DNA from: an uncultured bacterium
GTDB taxonomy: Bacteria; Cloacimonadota; Cloacimonadia; Cloacimonadales; TCS61
Assembly: GCA_965370415.1 (NCBI GenBank)
Contig: CBDUTJ010000008.1
Span: 9,010 to 73,009, forward strand
Reading direction: 5' to 3'
DNA length: 64,000 nucleotides
Shown piece by piece: positions 30,381-48,695 of this stretch. Both the position numbers and the translations under genes were made by a program. A model generated the notes under the pieces. The model searched no databases and was not told the DNA's origin. It was given only the letters and a program-made list of their open reading frames with translations. Numbering within the stretch: position 1 is the stretch's first letter; every line of letters begins with the position of its first letter.

Positions 30381-32738
30381 TTATTTAGTATTATTATTTA
30401 AAAAATCAAATTTTAACCCACTTGATCCTTCACCTTTTCCAGGTCCAACTTTTCTACCCTGCCATGTATGAGTTGACCCGTCAATCCAACGGGTTCTTTG
30501 TCGCTGTATTTGTATATTTATACCATGCCTTGCGACAGCTTCTTCATTAACTAAATGTTTTTCGCCATTAGATTCGGCAGATTTTAGAATTCTACTTTGA
30601 GCTTTAACTGGCTTCGGTTCATTATCCTTTTCATTCCTTATTAAATTAGCCTGCTTTAATTGAATGGAACGTTGTCCCGAACCTGTACTTATGGGTATGT
30701 ATGGAATCCAATTTTTCGGGACAACTGACATTATTTTATATATAGATAAACTATCATCTCTACTTTCTTCGATCTCAGAAAATATGGCCCTTTGATCTTC
30801 AGATAAGATAGATATATTTATTAATTTATTTAGCTCTTCTTTAATAACTTGATTACATGTTTCAAGTAATTCCAAGGTTGAAGTGTAATTTGCTCTTCTA
30901 AAGTAGGGCAAAATCTTTTCAAGTGAATCAATACATGGTGTTAGAACACCTGAGAATCTTCTTAATAAAGTGAGATTCTGAATATTTGTTTCATCATTTA
31001 TTATTCGTTGAAAAGCATCTTTATTTTTTATGATTTCCAAATTCAGCTCAAAAATCAAGTTTAAATATTCAATACTTGTATTGTCAGCAATTTCTCCTTT
31101 TAAACATTCTAAGCTTTTTAGCAATTCATCAATCTCAGATAATTCCTCTATAAGTTCTACTATTCCCTCTATTCCACGAGCCTGCTCTATTTTACTCTGC
31201 AGAATATCTGGCATAAATTTATTAAATAAATCTAATAATTTTATTATGGATTGGGTATTAGTTTTTTCATCTATCTTATAATTTATATGTTTCCAGCAAT
31301 CAAATCCTGCCAAGGGTTGCCCTAAATTACCTGTAATAATTTGCTCAATGGCCCATACTTTATTTGCCATCTCATCACGTATAAATCTAACCTCATCAAT
31401 ATTTGATGAATTTTCACTTCTTCCAAGTGTAGGCGGTAAAAACAGAAAATCAGCAGAGTCATATGTCCCATTTTCATATATTTGCTGTACTTGTTTTTCC
31501 CTTTTATGAGAAATACTGAACATCTCCCATCTTTGCCATGATTGATCTTCTTCACTCCCAGCCCGATTTATATTATGGGTTCCGCCAAAAACATCACGAA
31601 CTTCTAATTTTTTAATCTTACAGAGTGAACCAATTTTTAGAGGTACAGGAATCTGGAACCAATCATCACCATAAATAAAAGCAAATTCCATAAGAAGAAG
31701 CTTACCTAAATCTGTTGTTTTTACGTCCATATTTCCAAAATCAATTTTGGAATCCTCAAAAGCCCACCACCTGGAATTTGGCATTCCTTTAAAACTCACC
31801 GGAGTAGGTATAAACTGCTGTTCTTCATCAGATTCGAATCCTTGTCCGGTATCTTCATTATAGTCTAATTTTTTATCTGGATCATTAATTGCTGTAAAAT
31901 GGAGCCAGTCTAGATCTCCGCTAGTATAATCAGTTATTTCCAATACATGTTGTTCATTCTCATTTTTTGGAGCCGAAACACAAAATGAATAATCAAAATT
32001 ACTATGATCCCAAGCCGTTTCTTCCTCTAACACGGGTTGGAAATAGACTTTAGTATACCACAAATGTAGGGCTTTTAATGCATCAGTGATCTTATCTAAA
32101 TCACTATTAAATATTTGCTGTAGATCGTCAGGAATCTGAGGATCCTTACTTACAAGGTCATCAATATTGAATAGTTTTTCCCCACTTATTGGAATCTGAG
32201 CAGCATCCTCAAAATCATCTGGTTTGGCAATCGCTTCTAAAATACTTAATGTCTCATCATCAATTTTAATTCTGTCATCTTCATTTGGGAAAGATAAAGC
32301 AAATTTTCTTTTAATATCGATTGTTATTTCTTCACTTACATCTTTCTTTTTTAATTCCTTTTCAAATTGCAAACCTATTTGAATACTCATTCGATAATCA
32401 AAAAAAATTTCCTGTTCAACCAATCTCTCGAGAGGAATATTGTCCGGAATAGGTTTTGCAGAACCGGGGTGTTCAAATTTTTTTGGTTTATAGTGTGTAA
32501 GATGTGTTCTTTCGGTTTGCATGTATGTTTTCACAGGTGAACCGGCATCTTCTGCCTTAAATTCTCCTACCTGCCACTGGCGGGTGAGCATCCAAAGGGG
32601 ATCTCGAATTCTGGACTGAACACTCCGAATAAAATTATCATTTCTGGCCCTGGGTTCCAATCTTTTCCAGAATCGATATCTCTGTAGTAATTCTACAGAA
32701 TAAACTGCTACAACCTGTTCATAAACCTGACTTTCCAT
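30381..32738 (-). CDS. Giant-operon gene 7 of 7: 785-aa protein, unknown function, C-terminal GEGSSGLK[FY]DFL module
   Basis: Long ORF 17 nt after gene 6. No signal peptide or catalytic motif. The last ~55 aa are paralogous to the 79-aa protein. Confidence 0.85.
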   Translation of the reverse strand: MESQVYEQVVAVYSVELLQRYRFWKRLEPRARNDNFIRSVQSRIRDPLWMLTRQWQVGEFKAEDAGSPVKTYMQTERTHLTHYKPKKFEHPGSAKPIPDNIPLERLVEQEIFFDYRMSIQIGLQFEKELKKKDVSEEITIDIKRKFALSFPNEDDRIKIDDETLSILEAIAKPDDFEDAAQIPISGEKLFNIDDLVSKDPQIPDDLQQIFNSDLDKITDALKALHLWYTKVYFQPVLEEETAWDHSNFDYSFCVSAPKNENEQHVLEITDYTSGDLDWLHFTAINDPDKKLDYNEDTGQGFESDEEQQFIPTPVSFKGMPNSRWWAFEDSKIDFGNMDVKTTDLGKLLLMEFAFIYGDDWFQIPVPLKIGSLCKIKKLEVRDVFGGTHNINRAGSEEDQSWQRWEMFSISHKREKQVQQIYENGTYDSADFLFLPPTLGRSENSSNIDEVRFIRDEMANKVWAIEQIITGNLGQPLAGFDCWKHINYKIDEKTNTQSIIKLLDLFNKFMPDILQSKIEQARGIEGIVELIEELSEIDELLKSLECLKGEIADNTSIEYLNLIFELNLEIIKNKDAFQRIINDETNIQNLTLLRRFSGVLTPCIDSLEKILPYFRRANYTSTLELLETCNQVIKEELNKLINISILSEDQRAIFSEIEESRDDSLSIYKIMSVVPKNWIPYIPISTGSGQRSIQLKQANLIRNEKDNEPKPVKAQSRILKSAESNGEKHLVNEEAVARHGINIQIQRQRTRWIDGSTHTWQGRKVGPGKGEGSSGLKFDFLNNNTK

Positions 32739-32755
32739 AGTTTTATTCCTCTATC

Positions 32756-47332: not shown

Positions 47333-47339
47333 ATTTCCC

Positions 47340-48695
47340 TTAAGAATCCACCGTTTTCACAACCCTCATAATAACTCGCTCACTAAATCCGGTGACAAAA
47401 GCAATTATTAATACCCCACTGTCTGTTAATAAGTCCATACTAAACACTTTGCCGGCGATTCCAGTATGTAAAAAGACATTAACCGCAACCGCGGCAATAG
47501 CGCCGATCACCGGTCTCATCCAGGTAACAAAAGAACCTATCACCTGTTCAGGTATCTTTAAGTCTATTGAACTCTTAGTAAGAGTTATGGCCACACTTAA
47601 GGAAGCTCCCAGAATTCCAAAAAATTCTATTGAAATAATGGTTTTATAGTTCCCAATATTTTCCGGGAAAAATCCAAAGTATGCTAATATCGGGATTGTT
47701 ATCATTCCTAGTATTAGTATAAAAAACAATCTAAGTAAATTAGCACGTCTTAAACTGATTTTATGATAGGTGTTATCATAGTGTTCATCCCTAATAAATG
47801 TAGCCAAGTATATGTTTTCTCTATTAAGTGTGTTTGAGTTTGATTTGGATTCCGGATTTCCAATAATTTTAAATACTGCTTTTTGCCGCCATTTGCTGAG
47901 TTTTTTTTCTGTTTCCTGCTGTAAAGCAGCAGCCATGCATTTAATTTCATCATCATTGTACCCGAAGATTTCCATTCTTTTGGCAGCATGAAAATATTTC
48001 CAGCCTTCATCGAGTTTGTTTTTCAATAAGGCTAAATTAACCTTTTCAAGTAACGCATATACAGCTTTTACCCAATAATACTCGGTTTCTACATTGGATT
48101 TGCTTATACAAATACGATTATTTATTTCTTCATAATAAGCTTGAAGTGAACCTGCCAGACGGGAGTATCTTTTCTGTAAAAATATCCTTTGAATAGATCT
48201 GAAAATCCTTCCAATTTTCCCTGGATATTTTAATTGAAGTTGCATTTTACTGTTATAATATGTTTTTGAAAGTAATTCTTTCTCTTTTGGATAAGTTAGT
48301 CTTTGTAATGCCTCTTCAGGTTTTAACCACTCAATTGCGTCAACTTCATCTGAAGGTTCAAATGAGCATTTTCCTTCGACTTTCATATTCCAAAAAAGGA
48401 CAACCTTTAATGTTGTATCTACACTATAAAAAATAGTGCCAGCAAAACTTGTAATTATTGCATCACAACCAGTTTCTTCTTTGACTTCCCTTAACGCAAC
48501 CTCCTGCCATGTTTCTTGCTTTTGAGGATCAGGCTTTCCTTTGGGCAGAGTCCACTCACTTCCATATCTGGTTCTATGAACAACAATAATTTCACTACTG
48601 CGTGCTGTGTTTCTCCAAACTAATCCGCCAGCAGCAATAATTATTTCTTTGTTGGAATGATCATTACTTTTGTTTTTAAACATTTTTGGAATCAC
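47340..48695 (-). CDS. Giant-operon gene 1 of 7: NUDIX hydrolase domain fused to a helical linker and ~4 C-terminal TM helices
   Basis: NUDIX box GKPDPQKQETWQEVALREVKEETG (REVxEETG core). C-terminal hydrophobic helices LFFILILGMITIPILAYFGFF, IEFFGILGASLSVAITL, VIGAIAAVAVNVFL and GVLIIAFVTGF. Confidence 0.8.
   Translation of the reverse strand: MIPKMFKNKSNDHSNKEIIIAAGGLVWRNTARSSEIIVVHRTRYGSEWTLPKGKPDPQKQETWQEVALREVKEETGCDAIITSFAGTIFYSVDTTLKVVLFWNMKVEGKCSFEPSDEVDAIEWLKPEEALQRLTYPKEKELLSKTYYNSKMQLQLKYPGKIGRIFRSIQRIFLQKRYSRLAGSLQAYYEEINNRICISKSNVETEYYWVKAVYALLEKVNLALLKNKLDEGWKYFHAAKRMEIFGYNDDEIKCMAAALQQETEKKLSKWRQKAVFKIIGNPESKSNSNTLNRENIYLATFIRDEHYDNTYHKISLRRANLLRLFFILILGMITIPILAYFGFFPENIGNYKTIISIEFFGILGASLSVAITLTKSSIDLKIPEQVIGSFVTWMRPVIGAIAAVAVNVFLHTGIAGKVFSMDLLTDSGVLIIAFVTGFSERVIMRVVKTVDS

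Follow-up and report, generated by a model that had tools for sequence, protein, structure and literature searches.

Contractile injection systems, Tc toxins and those polymorphic toxins that are linked to secretion systems all combine a carrier with swappable effectors. Here, we describe a gene cassette that appears to resemble the Tc toxins and the extracellular contractile injection systems (eCIS) in logic only, with no sequence or fold relationship detected, and to which, within the literature searched, no description applies beyond the Pfam label DUF6603. It lies in a stretch of 64,000 nucleotides (nt) from an uncultured bacterium of the Cloacimonadota (GenBank assembly GCA_965370415.1, contig CBDUTJ010000008.1, positions 9,010 to 73,009 of the forward strand), referred to throughout as the window. 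A sequence-only reading of this DNA had proposed a seven-gene unit of giant proteins. Comparison with about 95 related loci bears out a conserved syntenic module, but the unit consists of four giant proteins, G4 to G7, and a gene before them whose position is conserved and whose sequence is variable. We call this position the slot, and in the window it is occupied by g3. The seven minus-strand open reading frames (ORFs) were all recovered, and the gaps between them, recomputed as 7, 20, 2, -4, 42 and 17 nt, agree with that reading (lower-case names denote the genes and proteins of the window):

47340-48695, minus strand: g1, 451 amino acids (aa), GTG start
47093-47332, minus strand: g2, 79 aa
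44424-47072, minus strand: g3, 882 aa
40954-44421, minus strand: g4 (G4), 1155 aa
37679-40957, minus strand: g5 (G5), 1092 aa
32756-37636, minus strand: g6 (G6), 1626 aa
30381-32738, minus strand: g7 (G7), 785 aa

Like the Tc (ABC) toxins, the cassette has several giant subunits without signal peptide or ATPase, couples what may be a conserved carrier to an enzymatic payload that is hypervariable, contains in one subunit a hydrophobic alpha-helical element of the kind that inserts into membranes, and is horizontally mobile and found in environmental bacteria. It differs from them in that Pfam and NCBIfam searches of the seven proteins (E <= 0.1) gave no RHS/YD repeats, SpvB or TcdB_toxin_midN/C domains, Pfam gave no VRP1, TcA_TcB_BD, neuraminidase-like or pore domains, and there was no match in the PDB. 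A Foldseek search with the model of g5 retrieved YenTcA only at E 0.9 and a probability of 0.02. The payload of the cassette would be a separate full-length enzyme gene, whereas that of the Tc toxins is a C-terminal hypervariable region fused to TcC; the cassette has four core proteins rather than three, and it also occurs in archaea.

With the eCIS, which include the Photorhabdus virulence cassettes (PVC) and the antifeeding prophage (Afp), the cassette has in common a spread over soil and sediment bacteria and haloarchaea, an apparent independence of Sec, and variable effector genes flanking a conserved structural operon. Unlike the eCIS, however, the window and 94 of the ~95 loci are devoid of genes for sheath, tube, baseplate, spike or AAA+ ATPase; a scan of g1 to g7 and the flanking ORFs of the window found no sheath, tube (gp19/Hcp), baseplate (gp25/gp6/J-like) or spike (VgrG/gp5) proteins. 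The models of G5 and G7 lack phage-tail-like folds, and the cassette is absent from IMG/VR, none of whose 2.9 million viral contigs contains a relative of the core proteins. We also rejected a phage or virus structural module, given this absence, the lack of a significant PHROG match and the lack of a BFVD fold match for g5. One locus, L011, carries a complete eCIS cluster (Pvc16_N, two sheath genes, gp19 tubes, CIS_tube, VgrG-like and base_V) at 14452-23321, directly downstream of a circularly permuted cassette. A general association with eCIS was rejected, since such a neighbour occurs in 1 of ~95 loci.

Bacterial gasdermin-protease operons likewise set an interchangeable protease (S8, trypsin-like or CHAT) beside a protein with a membrane-inserting element. 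The cassette differs in having no protein of gasdermin fold or size, with a core of ~4,650 aa in four proteins, in that many slot enzymes are not proteases, and in that its slot proteases have no NACHT, TPR or WD40 sensors but a C-terminal module specific to this system. Neither Pfam nor a Foldseek search of the PDB with the g5 and g7 models gave a gasdermin match. The C-terminal module is reminiscent of the MIX and FIX markers of type VI secretion systems (T6SS) and of encapsulin cargo-loading peptides, as all are short conserved modules on catalytically unrelated enzymes encoded beside the machinery, but it differs in being C-terminal, ~85 aa long, helical and so far found in one large slot family; we know of no sequence relation between it and these motifs. 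The cassette has the conserved and hypervariable parts that mark polymorphic toxin systems (~25-30 unrelated slot families) but not their adjacent immunity gene. Of the defence models in PADLOC-DB 2.0 none fitted the cassette, the only matches being those of g1 to the candidate PDC-S07 and of g7, at chance level, to BrxB. The original view that the operon cannot be placed in a described machine has therefore held for Tc toxins, eCIS and T6SS, adhesins, conjugation systems and the PADLOC defence models.

Conservation and distribution of the cassette

The comparison set was assembled from a GTDB genome scan with g4, look-ups of g7 and g5 homologues, annotated plasmid records and a metagenome scan with a g5 alignment, which returned more than 510 loci, 80 of them kept. 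In tblastn comparisons, the gene directly upstream of G5 is G4 in 62 of 66 testable loci and the gene directly downstream of it is G6 in 72 of 74; G6 in turn is directly followed by G7 in 56 of 56. Both exceptions to the G5-G6 order (L011 and L014) are circularly permuted, reading G6-G7-slot-G4-G5, and the short contig L016, left out of these counts, shows the same permuted order (G7-slot-G4). Nearly all loci whose upstream sequence is available have a gene on the same strand that abuts G4, the gap being mostly about -26 to +76 nt. The architecture of the cassette, a conserved G4-G7 core with a variable slot, is thus well established.

The families are large: that of g5 comprises at least 3280 homologue clusters at 90% identity, all of them unnamed or hypothetical, and that of g7 at least 1446, all hypothetical. 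The same cassette was, moreover, assembled independently in two ENA metagenome assemblies, and this, together with the thousands of intact g5 and g7 homologues, argues that it is not a product of chance. Most of the major phyla of bacteria are represented; the carriers include Actinomycetota, Bacteroidota, Acidobacteriota, Chloroflexota, Proteobacteria and Spirochaetes, with cassettes in Actinosynnema, Streptomyces, Nocardia, Pyrinomonadaceae and Gemmatirosa, in Chitinophagales, Bacteroidia, Rhodothermales, Anaerolineae, Cloacimonetes and Spirochaetales, and, amongst the proteobacteria, in Burkholderiaceae, Paraburkholderia, Rhizobium and Gammaproteobacteria. Archaeal carriers include Halobacteria (Natrinema, Salinigranum, Halalkalicoccus and Halobellus) and a metagenome-assembled genome (MAG) of the Odinarchaeota. 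Streptomyces, Paraburkholderia, Rhizobium, Gemmatirosa and the haloarchaea are culturable. We regard the cassette as a widespread, horizontally mobile, five-component system that is apparently undescribed.

The slot and its occupants

Among ~55 loci the slot proteins fall into ~25-30 mutually unrelated families. Matches to Pfam include peptidases (Peptidase_S8, Peptidase_M64-like with an intact HExxH, trypsin-like, Nal1, CHAT and M57) as well as phospholipase D (PLD) with an N-terminal CarboxypepD_reg domain, PhoD, Beta-lactamase2, tyrosinase, DUF4419 and DUF4056. No N-terminal signal peptide was found in the slot proteins, and no small immunity-like ORF consistently precedes or follows the slot gene across loci. 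The sequence-only reading had seen no protease or nuclease motifs in the operon; this stands for the core but not for the slot, which elsewhere usually encodes a peptidase or other hydrolase and in the window is occupied by a member of a family with invariant Cys, Asp and His.

The largest slot "family", of 17 members, is held together not by a catalytic domain but by the ~85-aa helical C-terminal module, which is common to subtilisin-type (GTSMAAP) and chymotrypsin-type (GDSGS) proteases of unrelated fold. A second feature that varies with the slot is the N-terminal ~430 residues of G4. When pairs of loci are matched for identity in the C-terminal DUF6603 region, these residues are at each level more alike within a slot family than between families (0.27 for same against 0.20 for different families at a C-terminal identity of 0.3-0.4, and 0.31 against 0.22 at 0.5-0.6). 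This pattern fits a role for the G4 N-terminus as an effector-specific adaptor.

The occupant in the window, g3, had no homologues by word search and only 25 remote ones in 1.84 billion representatives. One of these lies in L016 between the G7 and G4 genes, and the contig of the closest relative has a weak g3-like fragment at the same place. Across the family C327-D328, D399 and E420-N421 are invariant and H406 and H441 nearly so, within the motifs YCDxVIH...PGDHxIxxNHPAY...WRLEN...QGHG. Neither g3 in Pfam nor the family profile in the PDB had a match. We take these motifs to resemble those of papain-like or NlpC/P60-type Cys/His hydrolases, and g3 may accordingly be classed as a putative Cys/His hydrolase on its conserved residues. 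A relation of g3 to the PLD or M64 slot proteins was considered and rejected, as neither BLASTP nor a custom hidden Markov model found one.

Some loci depart from a single slot gene and a single G4. In L003, a beta-proteobacterial MAG, two tandem DUF6603 (G4) paralogues stand between a PLD slot gene and G5 (9305-18171); L015 carries a tandem pair of M64-like slot paralogues, and several ORFs of similar size apparently lie upstream in L062.

Sequence and structure of the core proteins

That no family could be assigned to these proteins, as first reported, is true of g5, g6 and g7, which match nothing, but not of g4, which belongs to the catalogued though uncharacterised Pfam family DUF6603 (PF20248; E 3e-129, with 432 bits where the gathering cutoff is 27, and an alignment that covers positions 1-501 of the 502 in the model and is hence full-length). 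The same domain is precomputed on the G4 homologues of L008-L015. Scans of Pfam, NCBIfam, PADLOC and PHROG gave no family for g2, g3, g5, g6 or g7, the match of g7 to BrxB having an E of 0.026, and 26 homologues of G6 were likewise without a Pfam match. Searches of PDB chains with g3 to g7 by phmmer found no match, and profiles of G4, G5, G6 and G7 built from 26-70 homologues found nothing beyond coiled-coil noise; the best E for G6, a non-significant 0.09, concerned its N-terminal coiled-coil region only. No Walker A motif occurs in any of the seven proteins, in line with what had been read from the sequence, and HExxH is absent too. Nor did the seven proteins show RHS/YD, sheath, tube or baseplate Pfam domains or any tandem repeats that we noted, again as originally described. 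In the literature searched no paper mentions DUF6603 or PF20248, and the work searched on eCIS accessory genes and polymorphic toxins holds no description of the cassette, of the G5-G7 partners or of the slot.

Within g4, the variable and helical N-terminal ~430 aa are followed by the conserved, Gly/hydrophobic and beta-rich DUF6603 region (residues 439-1013). In g6, a heptad-like stretch of ~100 aa precedes a conserved body of 1500 aa, in which residues 919-1030 form a helical domain homologous to residues 118-231 of g7 (hhalign probability 85%, E 6e-6). This domain of ~100 aa is the only one common to any of the core pairs compared, with no homology between G5 and G7 or between G5 and G6. 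The N-terminal ~64 residues of g7 are highly conserved but modelled with low confidence, residues 478-655 constitute a lineage-specific helical insert of ~180 aa, and the conserved C-terminal module, which ends in ...GEGSSGLKFDFL, is present in 58 of 58 aligned homologues.

AlphaFold2 models based on homologue alignments were confident for g5 and g7, with predicted local distance difference test (pLDDT) scores of 85.7 and 80.8. In the g5 model an N-terminal domain rich in beta-sandwich is followed by a long helical region and then by an alpha/beta domain at the C-terminus; the g7 model has an alpha/beta body, the helical insert and a C-terminal beta module. At a significance threshold of E <= 0.001, Foldseek found no match in the PDB for g5 (best E 0.28) or g7 (best E 0.35), and none in BFVD for g5. 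The most conserved segments of g7 (residues 24-68, residues 319-343 and the GEGSSGL tail) are those modelled with least confidence, and it may be that they fold on a partner.

The two-helix hydrophobic hairpin seen in g5 by eye was located at residues 567-585 and 592-610, within the helical region and, in the model, between two helices of ~29 residues. The hydrophobic segment spans ~45-65 aa, consistent with a hairpin, and occurs in 56 of 70 homologues; the charges flanking it in g5 are about neutral when examined by the positive-inside rule. The proposal of a membrane-associated assembly is thus supported by most G5 homologues but not by the ~20% that lack the segment, the homologue adjacent to the eCIS cluster among them. 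As had been stated, no core protein has a signal peptide. Some G5 homologues have nevertheless gained fn3, CarboxypepD_reg or InlB-B-repeat/Flg_new_2 domains, and in Salinigranum marinum the products assigned by the Prokaryotic Genome Annotation Pipeline (PGAP) are "BGTF surface domain-containing" for the G6 homologue (2,323 aa) and "lamin tail domain-containing" for the G7 homologue (905 aa). In Streptomyces longwoodensis a "VCBS repeat-containing protein" annotation underlies a G5-like match. Such gained domains are typical of extracellular or adhesive proteins.

Possible function of the cassette

We tentatively favour the view that the cassette encodes a complex which works without ATPase or Sec and serves in enzyme or toxin delivery by deploying an interchangeable hydrolase. 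Rather more tentatively, it is possible that G4 to G7 represent a previously unrecognised ATPase- and Sec-independent multi-subunit delivery machine of bacteria and archaea which receives its hydrolase payloads via docking modules and whose folds, to go by G5 and G7, have no known relatives. In the mechanism that we envisage, G4 to G7 would form a conserved assembly devoid of NTPase motifs and signal peptides, and the slot enzyme would dock to this core by adaptor modules particular to each family, which probably act on the variable N-terminus of G4. G5 would insert its hydrophobic helical hairpin into a membrane, and accreted domains of immunoglobulin (Ig)-like or adhesin-like type would mediate binding to a target surface. 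Released by lysis or another route, the five proteins would then work beyond the cell that made them, as a self-contained complex for delivering an enzyme or toxin. As immunity genes are lacking and the slot enzymes are of such kinds as IgA-protease-like M64, subtilase, PLD and tyrosinase, eukaryotic or general extracellular targets fit better than sibling bacteria.

Several considerations weigh against this interpretation. The assembly, export and toxicity of the five proteins are things that we infer, and the cassette has no conserved gene for lysis or export. The absence of the hairpin from ~20% of G5 homologues implies that membrane insertion is not a universal activity of the core, and extracellular-type domains are confined to a minority of homologues, being known for G6 and G7 from PGAP product names. 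The co-variation between G4 and the slot could arise from recombination linkage rather than contact, and the pairs compared are not phylogenetically independent. Peptidases dominate the slot, as would be expected too if the slot protease were an activator of the core and not a payload, and the surroundings in the window (restriction-modification, McrBC and the NUDIX-transmembrane protein) are defence-like.

These last points lead to an anti-phage or abortive infection system, in which the slot enzyme would sense infection and cleave, and so activate, a giant membrane-disrupting core, by analogy with the gasdermins of bacteria that proteases activate. The sequence-only reading had raised phage defence as a possibility, and the position of the cassette between a type IIG restriction-modification gene and McrBC in an integrase island, as well as the weak similarity of g1 to PDC-S07, is in keeping with it. 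The same peptidase kinds that occur in the slot, S8, trypsin-like and CHAT, accompany bacterial gasdermins; G5 has its hydrophobic hairpin, and the cassette is prone to horizontal transfer and found in both bacteria and archaea. However, no core protein fits a PADLOC model, the 4,650 aa of the core contain no NTPase or known sensor domain, and CarboxypepD_reg-PLD, PhoD, tyrosinase, class-A-like beta-lactamase and M64 proteins are unsuited to the role of an activating protease. The accreted fn3, lamin tail, BGTF and VCBS domains point outside the cell, and other loci adjoin type IX secretion system cargo, GGDEF/EAL, metabolic genes or eCIS with no obvious defence neighbours, although these neighbours were not screened against defence models and no statistics were applied. 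Whilst the context in the window remains defence-like, the extracellular-type domains and the scarcity of obvious defence islands in that unscreened set lead us to consider a defence function unlikely.

Slightly less probable again is an envelope-associated apparatus for export or display, which would secrete or anchor leaderless exoenzymes for nutrient scavenging rather than antagonism. Proteases, phosphatases and lipases are classic scavenging exoenzymes, and those in the slot lack signal peptides; the transmembrane hairpin in ~80% of G5 homologues, the surface-type domains on core homologues and the lack of immunity genes would all be expected of such an apparatus. It would, however, have to operate without an ATPase or other energy-coupling component and without signal peptides on its core proteins, and in ~20% of cases with a G5 that has no transmembrane segment at all. 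The same four proteins are, moreover, found in diderms, monoderms and archaea, whose envelopes are very different.

We think it improbable that the cassette forms an intracellular scaffold or compartment, a self-compartmentalising enzyme complex that sequesters a dangerous hydrolase. The cargo-like C-terminal module common to unrelated proteases would suit such a compartment, as would the lack of signal peptides on core and slot proteins and the fact that the slot gene is tightly coupled to G4 in translation. The extracellular-type domain accretions and the hairpin in most G5 homologues speak against it, Foldseek of the G5 and G7 models revealed no similarity to encapsulin/HK97, bacterial microcompartment or vault-like proteins, and it is hard to explain why tyrosinase, PLD and PhoD should share one type of cytoplasmic compartment. 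Least probable of all, and very unlikely in our estimation, is a described machine in disguise (a divergent Tc toxin, an eCIS/T6SS accessory module, an adhesin or a conjugation system), since for all that the carrier-plus-payload logic is the same and L011 has its four core genes directly beside a complete eCIS cluster, that adjacency is restricted to 1 of ~95 loci, G4-G7 have no sequence or profile match to any PDB chain, the two confident models have no Foldseek match, RHS, TcA, sheath, tube and baseplate Pfam domains are lacking, and there are no relatives in the IMG/VR viral contigs.

Were the cassette indeed to deliver hydrolases into or onto other cells, it would be a microbial weapon of a new class, could serve as a programmable chassis for protein delivery, and would stand as a fourth kind of "carrier plus swappable effector" beside the three with which we began. 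A function in defence or export would still define a new mechanism. In either case, ~4,650 conserved residues without detectable relatives (two of the four proteins having been modelled), coupled to swappable proteases, lipases and phosphatases, would amount to a new biological machine, no component of which has a described function, a structural relative (G5 and G7 being those modelled) or a mention in the literature searched. The ~85-aa docking-like module offers an immediate experimental handle.

Genomic context and mobility

The island proposed from the sequence was substantiated: the cassette sits in a tRNA-Arg/integrase island, between the type IIG restriction-modification gene and McrBC, and the island contains tRNA-Arg (13920-13996), two tyrosine integrases, that type IIG gene, a DUF927 protein and McrBC. 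Upstream of the operon, a 490-aa gene ends in a clear and strong intrinsic terminator (48966-48946 in a terminator scan), and the AT-rich spacer described earlier, ~270 base pairs (bp) long, follows this terminator and precedes g1; together, the two give the block an upstream boundary of its own. Most starts of g1 to g7 are preceded by purine-rich stretches, in agreement with the Shine-Dalgarno-like sequences that had been reported. An imperfect direct repeat of ~50 bp brackets the whole seven-gene block:

48915-48968, minus strand: upstream copy, including the terminator of the 490-aa gene
30150-30200, minus strand: downstream copy, ~180 nt past the g7 stop codon

The 26-mer core of the repeat occurs exactly twice in the 64-kb window, against 0 occurrences expected by chance. 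The hairpin and T-run noted downstream (30177-30197) were borne out in part: the sequence is a degenerate copy of the upstream terminator, and the terminator scan does not call it. The bracketing repeat suggests that the seven-gene block was inserted as a discrete cassette, and it may be an att-like scar of that insertion. At other loci the cassette is carried on megaplasmids or lies next to transposases, and in L013 (3001-6550) a DDE transposase insertion has split an M64-like slot gene into pieces of 492 aa and 218 aa whilst the four core genes are intact.

g1 and g2

The first two genes of the operon appear to be additions of this lineage. As the sequence-only reading had recognised, g1 combines a NUDIX domain (Pfam E 1.8e-14) with ~4 C-terminal transmembrane helices (hydrophobic segments at 320-446), and it matches PDC-S07 weakly (E 2e-6). 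It is found in no other locus and so lies outside the conserved cassette, although it is the first gene of the operon here. The module shared by g2 and the C-terminus of g7 (residues 699-780) was likewise verified, at ~40% identity over 77 aa. Elsewhere g2-like sequence is found only at the C-terminus of G7; no free-standing copy was found in the other loci, and a conserved small subunit was rejected on that ground. It may be that g2 is a relic of duplication, rearrangement or permutation rather than a dedicated subunit. In the permuted loci L011, L014 and L016, the C-terminal module of G7 stands directly before the slot gene, which is the position of g2 in the window.

Neighbouring genes

The 490-aa gene upstream of the operon (48965-50437, minus strand) encodes a protein with a signal-like hydrophobic N-terminus and 22 cysteines, without a Pfam match. 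Outside the operon, on the far side of the tRNA-Arg/integrase junction, is another giant ORF (2766-8864, minus strand; 2032 aa), for which Pfam gave nothing at E <= 1e-4. On the plasmid of Streptomyces sp. NBC_01724 (L097), divergent genes for a phospholipase D-like protein and a DUF2235 protein, the latter from a family of Tle1-type lipases, are found a few kb upstream of the cassette (733-3972) and adjoin genes with Ig-like and peptidoglycan-binding domains, and a WD40-repeat gene overlaps the G7 stop codon. Just downstream of g7, the window encodes a B12-binding radical SAM enzyme and a class I methyltransferase (27736-29753); possibly by coincidence, a similar pair is found in the Pyrinomonadaceae locus L010 (17880-21851), where it lies downstream of G7 at a distance of a few kb.

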